From an uncultured archaeon (GTDB taxonomy: Archaea; Asgardarchaeota; Thorarchaeia; Thorarchaeales; Thorarchaeaceae), in NCBI GenBank assembly GCA_964590575.1, contig CAZPWM010000043.1, positions 1 to 23,878 on the forward strand: DNA of 23,878 bases, in the 5' to 3' direction. Positions 1,396 to 9,791 of this stretch are shown here, one piece after another. Each line of letters opens with the position of its first letter. The first letter of the stretch is position 1. The translations under genes and the position numbers were made by a program. The notes beneath the pieces are model-generated. The model saw nothing but the letters and a program-made list of their open reading frames with translations, did no database searches and was not told where the DNA came from.

Positions 1396-1503
1396 ATGGC
1401 TGATGAAGAAACGAGTAACAAAACCTTCGCAAAGCGAGGGACTGGAAATCCGGGACTCAGAACGCTTGATTCCCTGTACTACGACTATGCTCGCATTAAG
1501 TGA
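1396..1503 (+). CDS. Small peptide P1, 35 aa: MADEETSNKTFAKRGTGNPGLRTLDSLYYDYARIK
   Basis: ATG at 1396 to TGA at 1503, preceded by GGAGGAG. Too short for the ORF track. Confidence 0.6.
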   Translation: MADEETSNKTFAKRGTGNPGLRTLDSLYYDYARIK

Positions 1504-1524
1504 GTCTAAATGGAGGTGAAGTGT

Positions 1525-1620
1525 ATGGCACTTGCGAAAACCGATAAGAGGAAGCTGAATCACGGGAAGAAGATTCAGACCACAGAAGCTTTGGCTTATG
1601 CTTATCTCTACAGAAGGTAG
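1525..1620 (+). CDS. Small peptide P2, 31 aa: MALAKTDKRKLNHGKKIQTTEALAYAYLYRR
   Basis: ATG at 1525 to TAG at 1620, preceded by a near-perfect archaeal SD, GGAGGTGA (1512-1519), with 5-nt spacing. Confidence 0.7.
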   Translation: MALAKTDKRKLNHGKKIQTTEALAYAYLYRR

Positions 1621-1654
1621 GGGTCGTAGCATCAGCCATGCGGATTAATCTAAC

Positions 1655-1700
1655 ATGAGATCGTGCTCGGGTCTTACTCGGGCACACTCATTCTCATTTT
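1655..1700 (+). terminator. 3' stem-loop followed by a pyrimidine/T-rich tract, closing the peptide unit
   Basis: GTGCTCGGGT-CTT-ACTCGGGCAC (1663-1685; 10 bp with two G.U pairs), extendable by ATGAG/CTCAT, followed by TCTCATTTTC. Confidence 0.5.
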
Positions 1701-1754
1701 CTACATACTCGCTTTTCTCGGTGGTTTTATACTCCCGATGGTGTACTAAAGCTC

Positions 1755-2087
1755 ATGGGGGCTCAAGTCAACACACAGCTTTCGAATTACATGGTCTATG
1801 ATATTCGAGGTTTCACTGAAATAGATGCAGTCTATGAATTAGCTATCAAGATTACTGATGAGGTAATGGAGGGAATTGCTAGGCTTGCCTATAGGAACAC
1901 CATCGAAACTGCAACTCTCTTTATCACAGAATCTGGTGCTCAACTCATCATTCTTGCACATTCATTCGATGAAGAACTCATTGCTCCAGCTTTCCGAAGC
2001 ACGCTCAAGAGTGTTTCATATGATTCAGAAACAGGATACATCCAACGTTATGTCATTCCAATCCTAGATGTTGAATCTCCGACTTAA
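1755..2087 (+). CDS. Hypothetical protein (110 aa)
   Basis: Globular-looking composition. TTTTATA box at ~1725-1731 suggests a leaderless start. No family recognised. Confidence 0.65.
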   Translation: MGAQVNTQLSNYMVYDIRGFTEIDAVYELAIKITDEVMEGIARLAYRNTIETATLFITESGAQLIILAHSFDEELIAPAFRSTLKSVSYDSETGYIQRYVIPILDVESPT

Positions 2088-2164
2088 TCTGGGCATAATG
2101 TACTATGGCTGTAAAGAAGGGTTCATATAATACTCTTCACTTGTGAGCGCAGGTGTCTGGAACT

Positions 2165-3295
2165 ATGAAACTAGAACGTTTTGAGCTTGAACGCAGCCAG
2201 TCCGAGTGGGAACATCGTGTCAAGTATAATCTCAGTGAGAGCGGTGTGGAACCAATGCATATCAGGGACCTGCTTGACACACCAGAGTTAAGAAACCAAC
2301 TTCTCGACCTACAACTTGGATACTCTCAGACAAACGGAACAGTTGCCCTTCGTGAAGCCATATCCTCCCACTATCCCGGGACTACTGCTAAGAATATCCT
2401 TGCTACCACTGGCGGAGCTGAAGCAAACTTCCTCGTGACCTGGTGGCTACGCAGGGAGAACCCGGACCGTGATGAGCTTGTCTATCTTATTCCAAACTAC
2501 ATGCAGATTGGCGGCATCTGGAAGAATCTTGGTGGAAAAATCATTCCTTTCAAGCTCCAGATGCATGATGGTAAATGGGTGCTTGACCTTGAAGGTCTGA
2601 AGAAATCAGTTTCAAAGAGGACCGCTGCAATTGCAATCTGCACACCCAATAATCCCACAGGAAAAATCCTATCAAAAGAAGACCTCACGACAATCGTTGA
2701 TATAGCAAAAGAGCACGATGCGTGGGTGGTCTCAGATGAGATCTACCGCGGGGCAGAGCTTCAGGAAGGTAAAGCTCCTTCAATGCATGGCCTCTCTGAC
2801 AGGATTCTCATCACTTCAAGTCTTTCAAAGGCGTACGGTCTCCCTGGCCTGAGACTGGGTTGGGTCGTCTGTCCAACACCTCAAGTGGCTGTTGAGCTCT
2901 GGACCTATTCTGATTATACAACTATCTGTCCTGCGAAGACAAGCGACTGGCTTGCGACGCTTGCGTTGTCACCTGAGGTTCAGGCTAAGATCGAGAAACG
3001 AACTCGAAAGGTTGTTAGCGAGAATTGGACTATCATGGAGAGGTGGATTGCTTCCCACTCTGACATGATGTCGGTAATAGCCCCTGAAGCTGCTGCTATC
3101 TGCTTCATCAAACTAAGAGATGACATTGACTCACTAGATTTCACTACACGGCTCAGAAAGGAAAAGAGTGTCCTCCTCTCCCCCGGTGATTACTTCCAGA
3201 TGCCCGGATTCATCCGTATCGGGTTCGGTAGTGAGAAGGAGTACCTTGAGTCTGCTTTGGAGACGATCGGTGAGCTTTTGGCTACCTACAAGTAG
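2165..3295 (+). CDS. PLP-dependent aminotransferase class I/II (aspartate aminotransferase-like)
   Basis: Motifs YNLSESG, TTGGAEAN, PNNPTG, SDEIY, SLSKAYGLPGLRLGW (PLP lysine) and RIGFG. ATG at 2165 follows AGGTG; alternative GTG at 2153. Confidence 0.93.
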   Translation: MKLERFELERSQSEWEHRVKYNLSESGVEPMHIRDLLDTPELRNQLLDLQLGYSQTNGTVALREAISSHYPGTTAKNILATTGGAEANFLVTWWLRRENPDRDELVYLIPNYMQIGGIWKNLGGKIIPFKLQMHDGKWVLDLEGLKKSVSKRTAAIAICTPNNPTGKILSKEDLTTIVDIAKEHDAWVVSDEIYRGAELQEGKAPSMHGLSDRILITSSLSKAYGLPGLRLGWVVCPTPQVAVELWTYSDYTTICPAKTSDWLATLALSPEVQAKIEKRTRKVVSENWTIMERWIASHSDMMSVIAPEAAAICFIKLRDDIDSLDFTTRLRKEKSVLLSPGDYFQMPGFIRIGFGSEKEYLESALETIGELLATYK

Positions 3296-3511
3296 ACCAT
3301 TGGATTTCTCGTCTAAAAATCACACTTTCATTGCACTTTTGACCATAGATGGTTCTTAATAAAAGTTATAATAGTTATTTTAGAGAAAATAATATCTATT
3401 CGTGCTTATGATGCCACAGATGAAGTTATCAGCCCTTATTTTGATGTATACTGGCTTTTGTATCTTTAGATATTTCGAACACACATTTTGAATGCATTTG
3501 TTTCTACTATA

Positions 3512-3547
3512 TTCTTGCAGTCGAAAAAAGATTGCAGGATGCAAGAA
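3512..3547 (+). other. Predicted 5'-UTR stem-loop with an alternative 3' arm, upstream of peptide P3
   Basis: TCTTGCAGTC-GAAAAAA-GATTGCAGGA (3513-3539). TTCTTGCA (3512-3519) can alternatively pair perfectly with TGCAAGAA (3540-3547). Confidence 0.5.
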
Positions 3548-3550
3548 AGA

Positions 3551-3670
3551 ATGGCGACAGAGGTGAAACAGCCGGAAACGAAGCCAATGAGTGATGAGCT
3601 CACGGAGAAAGAGGAACGAGAGCTCGCTCTGTTGGTGGAGTTGGCGAAGATCTACTATGATGGTCCGTGA
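3551..3670 (+). CDS. Small peptide P3, 39 aa: MATEVKQPETKPMSDELTEKEERELALLVELAKIYYDGP
   Basis: C-terminal part of track ORF 3488..3670; alternative ATGs at 3539 and 3587. Purine-rich coding-like composition. Its stop overlaps the GTG of the TPR ORF (GTGA). Confidence 0.6.
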   Translation: MATEVKQPETKPMSDELTEKEERELALLVELAKIYYDGP

Positions 3671-4206
3671 AAGGAGATCATAGGAAAAATCGGACGTGTC
3701 AAAAATTGTCAGGGACAGAGATAGAAGATGAGAATATACTAGGACATCTCCAAGAAGCGATTCAGAGAGTGGAGAACTCTGAAGGGTTGAAGTCCGCGAT
3801 AGGGGTCGAGTACGCGTGCCTGCTATCAATGATGCTTGAGCCCAAAAACCCAACGATGTGGAACGCATTAGCCTTGGTCTACATGATGTCCGATCGGGCA
3901 AAAGAAGCCGAAGAAGCAATTGAGAGGTCTCTGGATATCGATACTTCCAATGCTTGGACATGGACAATCTGGAGCGACCTCCTTAGACAGGAGGGTAGAT
4001 TAGTTGATGCAGAGCGGGCATATCGAATGGCCGCGGAACTGAACCCGAACGATGCATATGTCTTGCGGCATCTCGCGATGCTCTACTCAGCACGTGGGGC
4101 TTATCCGGAAGCTGTGGACCTATTCGAGACACTCATCCCGTTCATACCTAATGATCAAGAACTCTGGGATGCATATGCTGCATGTCTTCGAAGATTAGCG
4201 GACTAG
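3667..4206 (+). CDS. Tetratricopeptide repeat (TPR) protein
   Basis: About 3.5 TPR repeats: EPKNPTMWNALALVY...AEEAIERSLDIDTSNAWTW...AERAYRMAAELNPNDAYVLRHLAMLY...AVDLFE. Start may instead be TTG at 3706. Confidence 0.85.
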   Translation: MKGDHRKNRTCQKLSGTEIEDENILGHLQEAIQRVENSEGLKSAIGVEYACLLSMMLEPKNPTMWNALALVYMMSDRAKEAEEAIERSLDIDTSNAWTWTIWSDLLRQEGRLVDAERAYRMAAELNPNDAYVLRHLAMLYSARGAYPEAVDLFETLIPFIPNDQELWDAYAACLRRLAD

Positions 4207-7020
4207 CTACTCTACGTTTCTGAAGTCATCGGCTAAGTTGCTACTTAGACCTTTCTTGGTAGCAAAGTACGTTGTGACGAAGGCCGACATAAAGCTAAGC
4301 AAGATGATACCTGTGAGCAGGGGCATAGGAAAGACAAGGAATGTAGGGAGTCGAGACCAGACGATCTCAGTGGTAACGCCGAGAAATGCGAGTGGTAGCT
4401 GAAGCATGAGTAGTGACAAGAACAAGCCCACGATGGATCCTATGAATATCCCTAGGAGCATACTCACTCCCACATCAACTAGGACCGATTGCATGATTGA
4501 TGAGTTGGGTGTGCCCATTGCCCTCAGGATAGAGAACTGCTTCTGGAAACGTCGTGTCTTTACCACTGAGATGATCATCAGTCCAGCTGTAAGATAAATC
4601 AGGGAGAACAACAGGTTAAGAGTATAAACACCGTAGATAGATTGCCCAGTTCGTGAGTCTAACACCTCGTCAATGTTCGCCTGTGACGAGATTATCTCCT
4701 CAGTCGTGATATTGGTCCTGCTTGTGATATCCTCTATCACTTTGGTGTAATTCGCATCATCTGCAAGATCTACATAGATCTTGTTTACAGATGATGTGTT
4801 GAGTGTGTTCTGGATGTAGCTAATGTTCATTATGAGGAAATCACGAACTCCCGGTTCGCCAGGGAAGTAGCTTATTGTTCTAGCAGTATAGTCTGAAGAC
4901 ATGACATCCACGATAGAACAATCAAGAGTGTAATTTAGAGTGGAATTCATCTGAATGGTCACAAGCACAGAATCATGGTAGACTGGTTGCCCTAAGGAAT
5001 AATATTGCACAGGCATAAATGAGCTGATGATGTTTGTTTTATTCTCAGCGAGAAGTGGGATTGTTTTGTATGGATTCTCACTCATTGTAAAATAGGGGAG
5101 CAGAAACGCAGTCTGAACCCAGCTTATCGGATCGATTGCGAAGATAGTGAGTGATGTGTTCACACGAACTAGCTCCTGTTGTTTGGTTGCATGTAGGTAC
5201 ATTACACGAGCATAGGTTTTCAACAGAGCACTGGCATTGTTCACACCTTCAATATCTCTGATTACCCCGACGATGTCATTGGATACATTTCTCAAATCTT
5301 CATCCACATTGATGACAATATCCGCCCCCACATCAAAATTGAACAACTCCTCCATGTGCGTTGAGCCTGTGGTAGATGACACGGTTGAGAAAAAGCTTGC
5401 AGTGAAGACTAGTCCTATGAACATCACACCCAATGCTTCACTCCTCTTTGCCAAGATAGCATTCCTGGATACCATTAAGGCTCCTACAGTTCGCGATGCA
5501 CTTCGGAACAGGTTGAGCAATCTAGACTTAACAAAAGCGGTCGGTATTGAGAGTATTCTCGATACCGATAGGATGAACACGCCAAACATGGTTATGACCA
5601 AGACTGCAAAGAGAACCAATCCAGTGGGAGAAACTGCTCCAGAACTGAGTATTGATAATAGCGGTGTTAAGAGAAGACCGGATACTATAACCGCTAATAC
5701 ATCCGCTACAGGAGTGCTAATCATTTCCTTTCCTGCAAGGGATTGTCTCTCAACAACTGAGTGCGCCTCATCAGGTGTCATGAGGAGTGCATTGACTGCT
5801 GATGGTAGTGATATGGCAAAACCCACAATAAATGAAAACACGAATATAATTGCGATTGATGTCGGCTCTAGAAGTAGATTGAAGGTGGATAATTCCTCTT
5901 CACTAAAGACTAGGAGTTGTCTGACTCCTCCAGAGAGAATCGCTGCGAGTGCTCCAGTTAGAACCGCTCCTAAGCTTCCTATTGTTCCGGTCACAAGAGC
6001 GCTAGATATGACCCAGTTGAATGACTGCCATCCTGAGGCCCCTCTTGTGATTAAAGTTCCTACATCTTGTCTACGTTGGTCCTCCATCAGTTTCGAGTTA
6101 TAGGCTAGTAGCATCACACCCATCACAATGCTGGGGATTGAGAATGCCAGAGAAATTATGGTCATTGTTGAAGCCCAGGTGTTGTATCCATAGACAATTC
6201 CAAGGATTTCGAATTCAGTCACTCTTGCGTACGGGAGAGTACGCTGTTCTATTCTCTTCTTCACATCATAAAGCGATGATTCAACAAGACTCGGACTACC
6301 ATGAATGATGAAACTAGAATCAAACACTGTCCAGATACTATAAGCTGCTTCATGTACTGATTGCAGTCCCACATTTCCTAATTCTGATACAAGACTATTG
6401 CGAGTGGTAATCATCCGAAGTGAAGTGATTGGGTTTCCATCGGCATCTCGACTACTGCTGAATATGTTGCTTGCAAAAATCCCTCCTACAGTGTAACTTG
6501 CGTTGTATTTCTGGTCGTTGTTATTTGTGTTTGTGGCCAGTATCTCTGCAACGTAGGTGTTGCCAATCTTGAATCCCAAATATTCCGCCCAATCGCGTTC
6601 CAAGTAACACATGGTATCATTCAAGTCGAGCGACCCTGTCTGAACTTGAATAGCATCTGGGAACGTCTGAAAGAATGAACTATCTACACCAAGGTAGGTG
6701 TACTTTTTGAATCTGTTCTCTGGAAATTCACTGTCAAATCCATTAATGAAGGCAACTACCTCTGTATTCACAACCAGATCTTGTTCCTCTACAATCACTG
6801 CGATGTTCTCGATAGTTGTTGCATTTGTATCATAGAATTCAGATGTACACTGAACCTCCATATCGACAAGGATGTCTTGAGTCATTTCTTCAAGCACATT
6901 CGCACTTGTACTGTCCATGTAGAACAATACTCCACCCAAAACTCCTGCAGATAATGAAAACATGAGCAGAGTCGCTAGGACTTGAGGACTCCGTGACACA
7001 AGTCTCGAAAGTAGAAACAT
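4207..7020 (-). CDS. ABC transporter permease, FtsX/MacB-like (duplicated architecture)
   Basis: 937 aa with two extracytoplasmic domains and TM bundles; motifs RRQDVGTLITRGAS, VGADI and KQFSILRAMG. Confidence 0.88.
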   Translation of the reverse strand: MFLLSRLVSRSPQVLATLLMFSLSAGVLGGVLFYMDSTSANVLEEMTQDILVDMEVQCTSEFYDTNATTIENIAVIVEEQDLVVNTEVVAFINGFDSEFPENRFKKYTYLGVDSSFFQTFPDAIQVQTGSLDLNDTMCYLERDWAEYLGFKIGNTYVAEILATNTNNNDQKYNASYTVGGIFASNIFSSSRDADGNPITSLRMITTRNSLVSELGNVGLQSVHEAAYSIWTVFDSSFIIHGSPSLVESSLYDVKKRIEQRTLPYARVTEFEILGIVYGYNTWASTMTIISLAFSIPSIVMGVMLLAYNSKLMEDQRRQDVGTLITRGASGWQSFNWVISSALVTGTIGSLGAVLTGALAAILSGGVRQLLVFSEEELSTFNLLLEPTSIAIIFVFSFIVGFAISLPSAVNALLMTPDEAHSVVERQSLAGKEMISTPVADVLAVIVSGLLLTPLLSILSSGAVSPTGLVLFAVLVITMFGVFILSVSRILSIPTAFVKSRLLNLFRSASRTVGALMVSRNAILAKRSEALGVMFIGLVFTASFFSTVSSTTGSTHMEELFNFDVGADIVINVDEDLRNVSNDIVGVIRDIEGVNNASALLKTYARVMYLHATKQQELVRVNTSLTIFAIDPISWVQTAFLLPYFTMSENPYKTIPLLAENKTNIISSFMPVQYYSLGQPVYHDSVLVTIQMNSTLNYTLDCSIVDVMSSDYTARTISYFPGEPGVRDFLIMNISYIQNTLNTSSVNKIYVDLADDANYTKVIEDITSRTNITTEEIISSQANIDEVLDSRTGQSIYGVYTLNLLFSLIYLTAGLMIISVVKTRRFQKQFSILRAMGTPNSSIMQSVLVDVGVSMLLGIFIGSIVGLFLSLLMLQLPLAFLGVTTEIVWSRLPTFLVFPMPLLTGIILLSFMSAFVTTYFATKKGLSSNLADDFRNVE

Positions 7021-9791
7021 TATGCCCCCTCCATATATGGCCTTGCTTCAGTCCATGTGCTGTTTAATGAATCAATCAGGTTAACCCGTGAGCTCAATGC
7101 TGCAATCACACCAATGAAAATTACAACACAGAATATGAAGAAAGAGAGAATTATTGCCATTAAGGACCATGGGGCGAGAATGGTTACCGATGATGGATAG
7201 ATGTAGATTACCCCTCCGTAATTCCGAACTGCAGCGAGGAGTGAATTCACTGTTAAGAAAGGTGTGAATAAACCAAGTAGAATGACACTAATCAGAAGAA
7301 GTACTAGCATCTCTGAGGCTTCAGTCTTTATTACAAGATTTCTCTCTGCTCCAAAAGACCTGAGAAGCGCAATCTCTCTTTTTCTTGACTTGACACCTTC
7401 TATCGCGTAGACCGTGAAGGCTCCAAAGATTGTACCAACACTAAGAATTGTCAGTAGAGTGTCAGTAGAACGGTCTAGGCCATAGATTTCCTGTGATGTG
7501 TAGATCTCAACTTCACGGAAGGCAGATGCCCATTCATCCTCTTCCAGAACCTCAGTCCATCCATTATTAAGATGTTTTTCCGCTATGAGAGTCGCGTTGG
7601 ACTGGTCATCTACTCTCATACAAAACACGTTCTTGACGTCTGACACTCTTGATAAGATGTTCTCCACATCCTCCCTGTTCACCCATATTTTTTCTGCACC
7701 TACAGCATATGTCCACTCAAATCCAGGATATGGATTGTATCCACTACTGAAAGTCAATAAATCTGGAAGTGCCCCAACAACTCCGATGATGCTGAACTCC
7801 AGAGTTTCGAGCTCTGTTTCGTTCCTCCAGAAAGCCCTCAATAGACCACCGGTTGACAAGCCATACTGTTCTGCGATGTCCTGTGTTATGATAGCTCCTG
7901 AATCGGTTAATGCCAGCTGCTCTATCAATGTTCCAAGACTTGACTCATTTAGTCGATTGCCCACAGAATCGTATCCTACTTGTAAGTATTCAGTCGGTTC
8001 TAACGCGACAAACTCGTATGATCCTTCTGCGCCTGTAGACAAGGAGAGTGATAACATACTGAGGAGACTCCCAGTTGAGGATGGAATATTTTCAGAGAGA
8101 TTACCAATGAACGAATCCCACAGAACTGATTCGTCCGAATCGAGATGGAATGCCAAATCTCCACCAATAGCAAACCTCGTTTGATTCATTCTTGTATACG
8201 GCAATGTTGCATCGTTAATTGCATAGTTCCATCCCAGACTCATAGCCAGTACTAGAACCATGATAAGCGGTCCTGAAGAAACAGTTGCCTTGCTTATCCG
8301 TCGAATCCCAATAGCTGCAGGTATCTTCCCAACCACAGCACCGAACATTCTCGAGAATAAGTTGGAACCTCGCCTTAATCCCTTGAGTGCCAAACTTGTT
8401 AAACCAAAAAACAATGTGAAAGGCAAGAAACTTAGAATGTAGTAAAGAAGGGGGTTCCTTGTGACAACAGTACCTTCCAAATTGAGCGACACAAGTAACA
8501 CAACACTTAGTGCAAGGAGAACAGCATCACCTTTCATGAAACTCAGTGCTCTAGTTATTCTCGCGAGCCTTCCAGTCCTTTCTTTTGCAGTTATTCTAAA
8601 GACGCCTTTCATCTGATGTAAAGCTAATACGATGAGAGGCAGTGTCACTCCTGCAATTACAGAAAAAACCAGACCGCCAAATGAGATTAGAAGTGGTTCG
8701 GTGAACACCCTCTGGAAATTTATCATGAAGAAACCATTAGACGCGATAGCAAATCGACTTGCTACAACACCAACCACAAAGCCGGGTATAATCGAGAGGG
8801 CCGCCATGGTTATAATTTCAATATATACTGATAGACTAACTCGGGAACGTGAGGCTCCCCGGGCTATCAACATATTAATCTCGTAATCCCTTTCACTCCA
8901 AATATGATTGATAACCAGATATATGACAGCCAGCTCAAGAAGAATTGCTCCTCCACTTCGGAGAATCTGTGATATACGAAGGTCTGATAGATATTCCATA
9001 TAATCGTCAATTCCATCAGATAGGAAGTTGATGACATAATACTCTGATTCCCCTCCTCTCGCATAGAGGGGATCCAGTCTTATGATTTCATCATCTATTT
9101 CTTGAAGAAAGCCTAGGGATCCTGCTGGATCATAAGGGACAACTTTGCTTCTATCAACATCTGCATAGATGTAACTGAATGTCAAAAAGCGATTTAATGT
9201 CGAGTGAAAGATTACATGACCACAAGTGTAGAAGTATGGATTTGGATGGTCACTCTCCCCATGCTCAAAGATGCCGGTTACAGTTGTAGGCCGATATGAG
9301 GGATCATAGGGATCCAAAGGGGTAAAGGAGTAACTTACTTGGTCTCCTATTTCAACATCGAGAAGATCTGTGATAAGAGTGGAGATAGCTATTTCAGAAT
9401 TATTCACAGGAAAGCGTCCATCTATGATTGTGATTATGGTTGGGAATGCTTCAATGAACTCCTCATTATATCCCATACCGAATGTGTTTGCTTCCCGCCA
9501 ACTTCCAGATGTTGTTGATGCAAGATAGGTGAATGTTCCTCTGATTCCTGCAGCTCTCCTGATTCCCACAATCTCTCTAAAATCGTCTATTTCGGAATCT
9601 ATCCCACTTCCTGCAGCGACAAGTGACAATGGACCGATATCATTACTTGATGTCCATACTTCCATTGAATACGAGTCAACAAGGACCATTGTGCTAGCAA
9701 TTATGGCTGACGTGAGCATGAAACATAGAAGGGCTATTGACTTCCTCCTCTTGCCTTGAAATGCATCATAACCTACAGGAGTCACAACCAA
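7020..9791 (-). CDS. ABC transporter permease, FtsX/MacB-like (duplicated architecture)
   Basis: 923 aa; motifs IDGRFP..NSEIAI, ERDYEINMLIARGAS, IGGDL and RKREIALLRSFGA. Its stop overlaps the next ATG (TAATG at 7020). Confidence 0.88.
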   Translation of the reverse strand: MVVTPVGYDAFQGKRRKSIALLCFMLTSAIIASTMVLVDSYSMEVWTSSNDIGPLSLVAAGSGIDSEIDDFREIVGIRRAAGIRGTFTYLASTTSGSWREANTFGMGYNEEFIEAFPTIITIIDGRFPVNNSEIAISTLITDLLDVEIGDQVSYSFTPLDPYDPSYRPTTVTGIFEHGESDHPNPYFYTCGHVIFHSTLNRFLTFSYIYADVDRSKVVPYDPAGSLGFLQEIDDEIIRLDPLYARGGESEYYVINFLSDGIDDYMEYLSDLRISQILRSGGAILLELAVIYLVINHIWSERDYEINMLIARGASRSRVSLSVYIEIITMAALSIIPGFVVGVVASRFAIASNGFFMINFQRVFTEPLLISFGGLVFSVIAGVTLPLIVLALHQMKGVFRITAKERTGRLARITRALSFMKGDAVLLALSVVLLVSLNLEGTVVTRNPLLYYILSFLPFTLFFGLTSLALKGLRRGSNLFSRMFGAVVGKIPAAIGIRRISKATVSSGPLIMVLVLAMSLGWNYAINDATLPYTRMNQTRFAIGGDLAFHLDSDESVLWDSFIGNLSENIPSSTGSLLSMLSLSLSTGAEGSYEFVALEPTEYLQVGYDSVGNRLNESSLGTLIEQLALTDSGAIITQDIAEQYGLSTGGLLRAFWRNETELETLEFSIIGVVGALPDLLTFSSGYNPYPGFEWTYAVGAEKIWVNREDVENILSRVSDVKNVFCMRVDDQSNATLIAEKHLNNGWTEVLEEDEWASAFREVEIYTSQEIYGLDRSTDTLLTILSVGTIFGAFTVYAIEGVKSRKREIALLRSFGAERNLVIKTEASEMLVLLLISVILLGLFTPFLTVNSLLAAVRNYGGVIYIYPSSVTILAPWSLMAIILSFFIFCVVIFIGVIAALSSRVNLIDSLNSTWTEARPYMEGA

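Follow-up and report, generated by a model that had tools for sequence, protein, structure and literature searches.

Gene content of the region

The DNA analysed here is a complete contig of 23.9 kb (CAZPWM010000043.1, C43 in our numbering; "the window" in what follows is the whole contig of 23,878 nucleotides) from a Thorarchaeaceae genome of 3.4 Mb and 91% completeness (G000). It carries three very short open reading frames (ORFs), named P1, P2, and P3, the first two adjacent to each other and the third placed immediately upstream of a gene encoding a tetratricopeptide repeat (TPR) protein. An earlier note on this DNA had singled them out by a tyrosine-containing motif, L-x-x-h-Y-[YL]-[DY], near their C-termini, and its ORF coordinates, lengths, MA starts, and motif positions were all correct, the motifs ending 5, 2, and 2 residues before the stop in P1, P2, and P3, respectively. 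The genes of the region are the following:

1396-1503, + strand: P1 micro-protein, 35 aa, MADEE…LDSLYYDYARIK, tail …GLRTLDSLYYDYARIK, full sequence MADEETSNKTFAKRGTGNPGLRTLDSLYYDYARIK
1525-1620, + strand: P2 micro-protein, 31 aa, basic, MALAK…LAYAYLYRR, full sequence MALAKTDKRKLNHGKKIQTTEALAYAYLYRR, member of the B type of the family described below
1755-2087, + strand: gene for a 110-aa protein without assigned family, between P2 and the aminotransferase
2153-3295, + strand: class I/II aminotransferase gene (family match), between the 110-aa gene and P3
3551-3670, + strand: P3 micro-protein, 39 aa, acidic, MATEV…LAKIYYDGP, full sequence MATEVKQPETKPMSDELTEKEERELALLVELAKIYYDGP
3706-4206, + strand: TPR protein, 166 aa, TTG start, three TPR repeats and a capping helix, matching Pfam TPR_2, TPR_19, and others

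Coding potential of the short ORFs

Orthologous regions were gathered from 21 additional genomes within the genus, and tblastn searches recovered all three ORFs in them with identities comparable to those of the flanking proteins. When the pooled Nei-Gojobori ratio of nonsynonymous to synonymous divergence (dN/dS) was calculated for the annotated frame and for the other two frames, P1 showed 0.48 in frame versus 0.9-2.0 off frame (12 sequences), P2 showed 0.25 versus 0.8-1.2 (10 sequences), and P3 showed 0.21 versus 0.7-1.6 (7 sequences). In addition, third codon positions presented an excess of differences in the three ORFs, and both halves of each peptide were constrained, with N-terminal-half values of 0.46 (P1), 0.17 (P2), and 0.31 (P3), the C-terminal half of P3 (0.10) being its most tightly constrained part. 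Because of this in-frame selection, the third-position excess, and the constraint on both halves, P1, P2, and P3 are, on the pattern of their codons, real protein-coding genes under selection that gene finders had missed. Neither they nor their paralogs gave any match in Pfam or NCBIfam, P2 had no usable match in the ESM Atlas, and the part of the literature available to us contained nothing relevant on these motifs or on small proteins of Asgard archaea and Thorarchaeota. Within that scope, the suggestion that the peptides are undescribed, conserved genes was borne out.

The opposite view, that the ORFs are untranslated and that their conservation reflects RNA or DNA elements, seems to us highly improbable. 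It could draw on the conserved hairpins that flank the ORFs, on the RNA-library contigs, which miss the peptides, and on the low proportion of synonymous differences (pS) in the 3′ half of P1 (positions 1450-1503; 0.20 versus 0.43 in the N-terminal half), which hints at an additional constraint at the nucleotide level, such as RNA structure or the ribosome-binding region of P2. However, both the codon-position pattern and dN/dS pick one frame in all three ORFs, open frames of the right size persist in hundreds of family matches, paralogs hold the amino-acid motif while their DNA diverges, and proper Shine-Dalgarno and ATG signals exist.

P1 and P2 form an autonomous unit

The segment around P1 and P2 (about 1305-1722) constitutes a first, self-contained module, with the signals listed here in their order along the DNA, the last of them lying outside the peptide units and given for context:

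1309-1316, + strand: TATA-like box CTTAAATA, in the putative promoter region 1305-1332
1318-1332, + strand: perfect palindrome TGTAATAgTATTACA, candidate operator
1343-1378, + strand: hairpin CAACTGT…ACAGTTG of the 5′-UTR (5′ untranslated region), minimum free energy (MFE) -15.1 kcal/mol, z -1.9, abutting the Shine-Dalgarno sequence
1378-1384, + strand: Shine-Dalgarno GGAGGAG of P1, adjoining the 5′ hairpin
1512-1519, + strand: Shine-Dalgarno GGAGGTGA of P2, 5 nt upstream of its ATG, as read from the sequence
1663-1685, + strand: terminator-like hairpin, followed by T tracts (whole region 1663-1722), MFE -21.1 kcal/mol, z -4.0, with 0 of 200 shuffles equally stable
1725-1732, + strand: TATA-like box TTTTATAC of the 110-aa gene, a putative promoter element about 23 nt upstream of its ATG (1755)

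Both the TATA-like box and the palindrome were kept in 16 orthologous upstream regions. In 15 orthologs, the 6-bp helix of the 5′ hairpin was 86.5% paired, with compensatory changes at three of its six pairs (8 cells, a count attained by 1 of 500 shuffles). As for the downstream hairpin, inspection by eye showed that its structure is kept in orthologs despite changed arm sequences and is followed by T runs; a scan for bacterial-type terminators did not flag it. The spacer between P2 and the 110-aa gene contained no conserved ORF, and the TATA-like box within it was found in 15 orthologous spacers. The exact form of the palindrome is unique in the genome, and a single near-copy, TGTAATATGTAATACTATTTCA, was detected on contig C15 (20240-20300), in an intergenic position before a membrane-protein gene; judged by its sequence, it may be a second site of the same putative regulator.

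P1 is single-copy and specific to the genus: its hidden Markov model (HMM) matched 19 of the 27 other genomes within the genus but none of 59 from elsewhere. A P2 ortholog lay 17-54 nt downstream in all 20 P1 matches, that of this genome included. The pair does not depend on its present neighbours: in G014 it was found away from the 110-aa gene, complete with promoter, palindrome, 5′ hairpin, and terminator hairpin, in G004 it is on a contig where no match to the 110-aa gene was found, and in G012 it follows that gene. With its own putative promoter and terminator and this relocation in three genomes, P1-P2 is therefore an autonomous two-gene unit, probably regulated, and not the leader of the aminotransferase operon. 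A functional link of the peptides to the two genes lying between the loci, the aminotransferase and the 110-aa gene, was likewise not supported, given the unit's own terminator, the separate TATA-like box of the 110-aa gene, and the presence of the unit elsewhere in two genomes.

The layout could nevertheless recall an attenuator, in which P1-P2 would be a leader rich in Tyr codons controlling the 110-aa gene and the aminotransferase: a promoter, short Tyr-rich ORFs, and a strong hairpin with T tracts precede the structural genes, this arrangement is kept in most genomes of the genus, and the aminotransferase is of class I/II. Yet a conserved TATA-like box stands between the hairpin and the 110-aa gene, the unit and its terminator are placed elsewhere in G014 and G004 and, in G012, behind the 110-aa gene, the paralogs of P2 are found by themselves or ahead of unrelated genes, and residues other than Tyr are conserved equally, all of which makes attenuation hardly credible.

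P2 belongs to a large family of chained peptides

HMM searches identified nine members of a family with the form MALAK…STxAIxxAYxYRR in this genome, distributed over five loci (contigs C43, C29, C1, C73, and C127) and always in tandem. P2 itself was matched at E-values from 6e-8 to 7e-12 by HMMs built only from paralogs of other loci or genomes, and its membership of the family stands on these matches; the paralogs were retrieved at 1e-4 to 1e-12. With an HMM made from a paralog-enriched alignment, which underlies all the distribution counts given here, the family was detected in the 27 other genomes of the genus (3-13 matches each, E ≤ 0.01), in 70 of 85 genomes of the taxonomic family, and in 15 of 17 genera of the class, while none of 191 genomes from 27 other Asgard families gave a match at E ≤ 1e-4. 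Nearly all the matches were found in stop-to-stop frames of 29-42 aa, and the members themselves range from about 40 aa down to 22 aa, the latter in a single copy below the threshold.

Twenty additional loci, drawn from six genomes, of which loci 19 were read downstream, allowed three types of peptide to be resolved. Peptides of the A type contain 33-37 aa (MALATNSRNTSVLKNK…STEAITYAYQYRR), whereas those of the B type, P2 among them, contain 29-32 aa (MALAKT.KRK…ISTDAITHSYMYR). The C type is an acidic third peptide of 34-40 aa whose tail, …EEVLxLEAT-stop, is invariant; in A-B-C chains it always occupies the final position, and it closes the chain in eight of the 19 further loci read downstream and in two loci of this genome. 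From sequence, A and B peptides carry charges of about +5 to +6, and C peptides of about -4. P1 occupies the position of the A peptide in its unit, without detectable homology to it. Examples of the C type came from L047:1378-1491 (- strand), L051:257-370 (+ strand), and eight loci of other genomes, and a weak copy was seen on contig C2 of this genome (28547-28609). The four other chains of the genome are:

C29:5638-5961, - strand: P2-type chain, A-B-C
C73:49-373, + strand: P2-type chain, A-B-C
C1:87878-88301, + strand: P2-type chain, A…B-B′
C127:2-152, + strand: P2-type chain, A-B followed by a major facilitator superfamily (MFS) transporter gene

The ORFs of these chains end in (A/C)GG AGG TAA/TAG, that is, in the sequence GGAGGT, and the next ATG follows 4-6 nt further on. 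The terminal Arg codons and the stop therefore double as the Shine-Dalgarno sequence of the next ORF, at C29, C1, C73, and C127 as well as at most of the 19 further loci, which explains the Arg-Arg-stop tails. As the tail of each ORF is the Shine-Dalgarno sequence of its successor, a chain's peptides would be made together. P2, which has no ORF following it, ends in AGA AGG TAG, and P1 in ATT AAG TGA.

In three of the four other chains, a contig end is no more than about 800 nt away, and the promoter and 5′ segment are almost the same in C1 as in C73, an indication that the repeats break the assembly. Apart from the MFS transporter gene that directly follows the C127 chain, and likewise a chain in G002, the neighbours of the other chains in this genome are unrelated, namely TrmB-type, helix-turn-helix (HTH), amino-acid kinase, and ATC hydrolase genes. 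A search of the P2-paralog loci with aragorn gave nothing.

Most likely, the A, B, and C peptides, and P1-P2 with them, would be small trans-acting proteins that assemble with each other, with basic A and B peptides brought together with acidic C peptides by their charge. Small, cationic, leaderless peptides in tandem and in multiple copies, basic A and B peptides paired with an acidic C peptide, and a chain coupled directly to an MFS transporter gene, both here and in G002, could also describe a toxic or antimicrobial system akin to leaderless bacteriocins or toxin-antitoxin pairs, with the C peptide neutralising the basic ones. We regard this as unlikely, since the family is conserved over 15 of 17 genera under purifying selection instead of varying between strains, the four other loci of the genome lack genes for immunity, ATP-binding cassette (ABC) export, or processing, the peptides are polar and neither hydrophobic nor amphipathic along their length, and the P1-P2 unit has no acidic third peptide.

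Relationship among P1, P2, and P3

The earlier note had proposed that the three peptides form one family whose shared tail is recognised by the neighbouring TPR protein, as a signal or by helix complementation. Its motif is indeed rare, being found in only five of the 22,335 ATG-initiated ORFs of 20-60 aa in the genome, three of which are P1, P2, and P3, but the pattern was written to fit these peptides. The same holds for a nine-residue pattern near the stop, [ST]x[DE][SA][LIV]x[YH]x[YF], also fitted post hoc, which occurs in six of 158,034 frames of the genome, four of them from the P2 family and one of them P1. In all three peptides, the N-terminus is charged and a stretch near the C-terminus is rich in Tyr.

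Against a single family, comparison of ortholog profiles with hhalign gave no significant similarity, neither between P1 and P2 (E 0.23) nor between P1 and P3 (E 0.016, probability 2.9%, 11 columns), and P2 and P3 produced no alignment. Paralog-enriched HMMs of the A type, of the B type, and of both combined missed P1 and P3 among the 158,034 frames even at E ≤ 100. The four other P2-family loci of this genome have no TPR neighbour, P1-P2 relocates independently of P3-TPR, the two units are preceded by different regulatory motifs, and P3 matches no TPR profile. One family of three read by the TPR protein thus appears unlikely to us. A distant relationship between P1 and P2 is possible on sequence grounds, as the nine-residue pattern that they share is almost unique in the genome. 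Two further candidates were discarded: no operator shared by the P1-P2 and P3 units was found, and a kinship of P3 with the acidic C-type peptides came down to one column in hhalign (E 0.08).

A single family of P1, P2, and P3 was therefore not demonstrated, and the region instead holds two separate micro-gene modules, P1-P2 and P3-TPR; taken jointly with the mechanism proposed for them, this reading has, in our estimation, slightly better than even prospects of being right.

Conservation of P3 and its pairing with the TPR gene

The second module (3516-4206) includes, besides P3 and the TPR gene, these elements:

3516-3536, + strand: hairpin TGCAGTC-N7-GATTGCA, MFE -13.7 kcal/mol, z -4.6
3537-3545, + strand: invariant GGATGCAAG, 5′ of P3, conserved irrespective of reading frame
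3671-3705, + strand: spacer between P3 and the TPR gene, 35 nt, with a weak Shine-Dalgarno-like GGACGTG at 3692-3698

In eight orthologs, the seven pairs of the hairpin were retained, all changes being one-sided to G-U. The stem-loops reported upstream of both peptide loci, at 1343-1378 and 3516-3536, thus exist and are both kept in orthologs.

P3, a single-copy gene, was detected in 20 of the 27 other genomes within the genus as well as in 2 of 17 genomes from a second genus. Its orthologs hold a length of 38-41 aa and end in the invariant tail E-[LFW]-A-[KR]-I-Y-Y-D-G-P-stop, which in the second genus becomes …EWAKIGYNGP or …GYNGT, and the stop codon varies among TGA, TAG, and TAA. A DNA pattern for A[KR]IYYDGP-stop found 11 matches in 185,579 species genomes, all of them titled Thorarchaeota or Promethearchaeota. 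At the 23 P3 loci, from two genera, the TPR gene is always the next gene on the same strand, as the earlier note's idea of a conserved pairing had anticipated, and the pair is kept both in the second genus and at loci without a nearby aminotransferase match (L097-L100). The spacer measures 29-40 nt in 18 orthologous loci, its sequence is conserved, and no terminator was seen between P3 and the TPR gene. In the segment 3655-3685, the sequence GGAGGTCATAGG, placed directly behind the P3 stop, is kept in orthologs, though not in distant ones, and can pair with CTATGA of the YYD codons, in a fold that is non-significant (z -1.6).

The longest ORF of the TPR gene (179 aa) begins at GTG 3667 and so overlaps the P3 stop as GTGA. 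This overlap, from which coupling of the two genes had been suggested, is present in the DNA but does not mark the true start, as it is not conserved: in 9 of 19 orthologous upstream regions, the stretch from the overlap to the conserved start contains in-frame stops or is in another frame. Since these orthologs bar the upstream GTG, the TPR gene most likely starts, judging from the alignment, at TTG 3706, 35 nt downstream of P3, where the conserved beginning [M/L]-S-[GE]-[ST]-[ED] is found, and several public annotations give this 166-aa form. Close species with P3 have the TTG start and a weak Shine-Dalgarno sequence, while distant species and three P3-less ones have ATG and GGAGGTG.

The AlphaFold2 (AF2) model of the TPR protein is all-helical, with the TPR fold and two N-terminal helices, and has a predicted local distance difference test (pLDDT) score of 82 overall; the three repeats and the cap (residues 45-166) score above 88, and the N-terminal residues 1-45 score 43-55. 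These N-terminal residues (3706-3840) are strongly conserved, including ILGH and EYACLRSMMLEP, in spite of that low score. P3 had no Pfam match at E ≤ 1, TPR families included, and its profile aligned with that of the TPR protein over one column (E 0.26), so that the reading of P3 as a complementing TPR half-repeat was not supported. A predicted complex of the TPR protein (19-row alignment) with P3 (21-row alignment) scored 0.02 versus a mark of 0.32, a result that we count neither for nor against binding.

A partner of the TPR protein or an upstream ORF

We infer that the second module works as a bicistron made up of the conserved hairpin, P3, the 35-nt spacer, and the TPR gene, in which both genes would be co-transcribed and ribosomes finishing P3 would re-initiate at the weak TTG of the TPR gene, yielding the two products in fixed proportion. 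The acidic, helical P3 would then, by way of its invariant E-h-A-[KR]-IYYDGP tail, serve the TPR protein as partner or ligand; such binding is plausible. A more specific version, in which P3 docks on the TPR protein by the IYYDGP tail, perhaps ordering its N-terminal 45 residues, and the chained A, B, and C peptides constitute an unseen layer of co-translated micro-proteins, P3-TPR being the only instance with a visible receptor, is rather speculative, and we hold it to be less probable than its alternatives combined by a wide measure.

Several observations count against the interpretation of both modules as sources of trans-acting peptides. The RNA-library contigs from two metatranscriptome runs cover only 2155-2515, inside the aminotransferase gene. 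The neighbours of the A, B, and C peptides differ at every locus, and nothing points to a target of these peptides. G008, G024, and G015 keep a well-conserved TPR gene without P3, and therefore the TPR protein can exist without the peptide. No P3-TPR fusion was found among 103 homolog clusters (101-210 aa), of which eight sequences were read, the longest ones included. Finally, a purely cis-acting regulatory upstream ORF (uORF) would account equally well for the conserved Gly-Pro-stop tail, for the location of P3 ahead of the TPR gene, and for the weak start that follows it.

In the three genomes that have lost P3, a gene for a 195-aa membrane protein is inserted on the - strand between the aminotransferase and the TPR gene, as follows in oriented loci:

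L042:1737-2324, - strand: 195-aa membrane-protein gene
L043:4060-4647, - strand: 195-aa membrane-protein gene
L044:4051-4638, - strand: 195-aa membrane-protein gene

Its product is rich in Cys at the N-terminus and contains two hydrophobic segments. The TPR ORF of G015 stops short, at 125 aa. When TPR sequences from loci with P3 were compared with those from loci lacking it, no informative differences emerged. A candidate fusion in the P3-less clade, with …NGGGP-MSGSE in frame, turned out to be the translated Shine-Dalgarno region GGAGGTGG, and long TPR homologs were also discarded as fusions: the extension of P0045 is an out-of-frame reading over the P3 region, and the other seven have no P3-like N-terminus.

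The main rival to P3 as a partner of the TPR protein is thus a purely cis-acting uORF, in which the nascent …IYYDGP-stop would slow termination or stall the ribosome and so set the level of the TPR protein, the free peptide having no function. We consider it less probable, though a serious possibility. P3 precedes the TPR start by 35 nt and shares its orientation, and the peptide is most strongly conserved over its last 10 residues or so, next to the stop; in E. coli, a C-terminal Pro before the stop slows termination. In addition, the TTG start with a weak Shine-Dalgarno sequence goes with P3, whereas ATG with a strong one is found where P3 is absent or divergent, and the TPR gene persists without P3 in three genomes. 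However, purifying selection also acts on the N-terminal half of P3 (dN/dS 0.31), the peptide keeps a length of 38-41 aa, its stop codon varies (TGA, TAG, TAA), one ortholog of the second genus ends in …GYNGT and not in …GP, and the hydrophobic helix face E-[LFW]-A-[KR]-I is conserved like a protein interface. The uORF reading accounts for these features less well.

Neighbouring genes

The 110-aa protein gave no match in Pfam or NCBIfam. Among the genomes sampled, 21 of the 24 from the genus encoded it and none of the 16 from elsewhere did; the dN/dS of its gene is 0.11. Its AF2 model (pLDDT 76.6) is an alpha/beta sandwich, for which Foldseek found no match in the PDB at E ≤ 0.001; the best VIA-align Z, 6.3, to an EpsL/PilO-like alpha/beta sandwich, is within the range of common arrangements. 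The mRNA of this gene is probably leaderless, as its TATA-like box is only about 23 nt upstream of the ATG. Downstream, two adjoining FtsX-type permease genes (937 and 923 aa; 4207-9791, - strand) converge on the TPR gene, both encoding long extracytoplasmic regions between FtsX domains. Rfam and tRNA scans of the whole window gave nothing.

Significance

Asgard archaea, the closest prokaryotic relatives of eukaryotes, have been studied only through genomes and a few cultures, and annotation skips ORFs of less than about 40 codons. Our results show that their genomes hold conserved, selected, multi-copy micro-genes, which come here with their own promoters, candidate operators, RNA hairpins, and a distinctive chaining of translation. 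What is new is a set of lineage-specific micro-protein genes, one of them in a large family, together with a conserved peptide-TPR pairing. If P3 and the TPR protein are a ligand-receptor pair, peptide-TPR recognition would extend to archaea, and if P3 docks on the TPR protein, this would be the first archaeal pair of a peptide and a TPR receptor, an intracellular analogue of bacterial RRNPP sensing. Should P3 be a regulatory uORF, it would represent a rare candidate for archaeal nascent-peptide control. The coordinates and HMM seeds permit the annotation of these genes and their look-up in metaproteomes and metatranscriptomes.

Comparison with known systems

Multi-peptide leaderless bacteriocins, such as aureocin A70, garvicin KS, and enterocin L50, resemble the chains described here in that two to four cationic peptides, each of 30-45 aa, are encoded in head-to-tail order and lack a leader. 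In contrast to them, the P2 family is conserved across the taxonomic family (70 of 85 genomes), with 3-13 copies per genome, no export or immunity genes are found at the four other loci of this genome, and the sequences are polar.

Regulatory leader or arrest peptides, such as TnaC, SecM, and MgtL, share with P3 a short ORF just upstream of a possibly controlled gene, with a conserved C-terminus and, in P3, a Pro at the stop. However, the whole of P3 is under selection, N-terminal half and length included, and in none of the three peptides is the constraint limited to a C-terminal motif, as expected of an arrest peptide (N-terminal dN/dS 0.46, 0.17, and 0.31 for P1, P2, and P3); moreover, P1-P2 and the A-B-C chains are free-standing, with their own terminators. 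To our knowledge, no arrest-peptide mechanism has been described in archaea.

There is a likeness in layout with the RRNPP pairs of Firmicutes and their phages (Rap-Phr, NprR-NprX, PlcR-PapR, and AimR-AimP), in which, as in P3-TPR (23 of 23 loci), a tiny ORF adjoins the gene of a TPR protein and encodes a peptide conserved in its C-terminal 6-10 residues. In contrast, the TPR protein found here has only 166 aa and no HTH or enzymatic output domain, its Pfam matches being to TPR-type families only, P3 lies upstream and not downstream of the TPR gene, the peptide is acidic, with a charged N-terminus and, by reading of its sequence, no hydrophobic export signal, and the host is an Asgard archaeon. 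Because the putative receptor lacks an output domain and the peptide an export signal, P3-TPR is, as far as these features tell, similar to the RRNPP systems in layout only and not a member of them.

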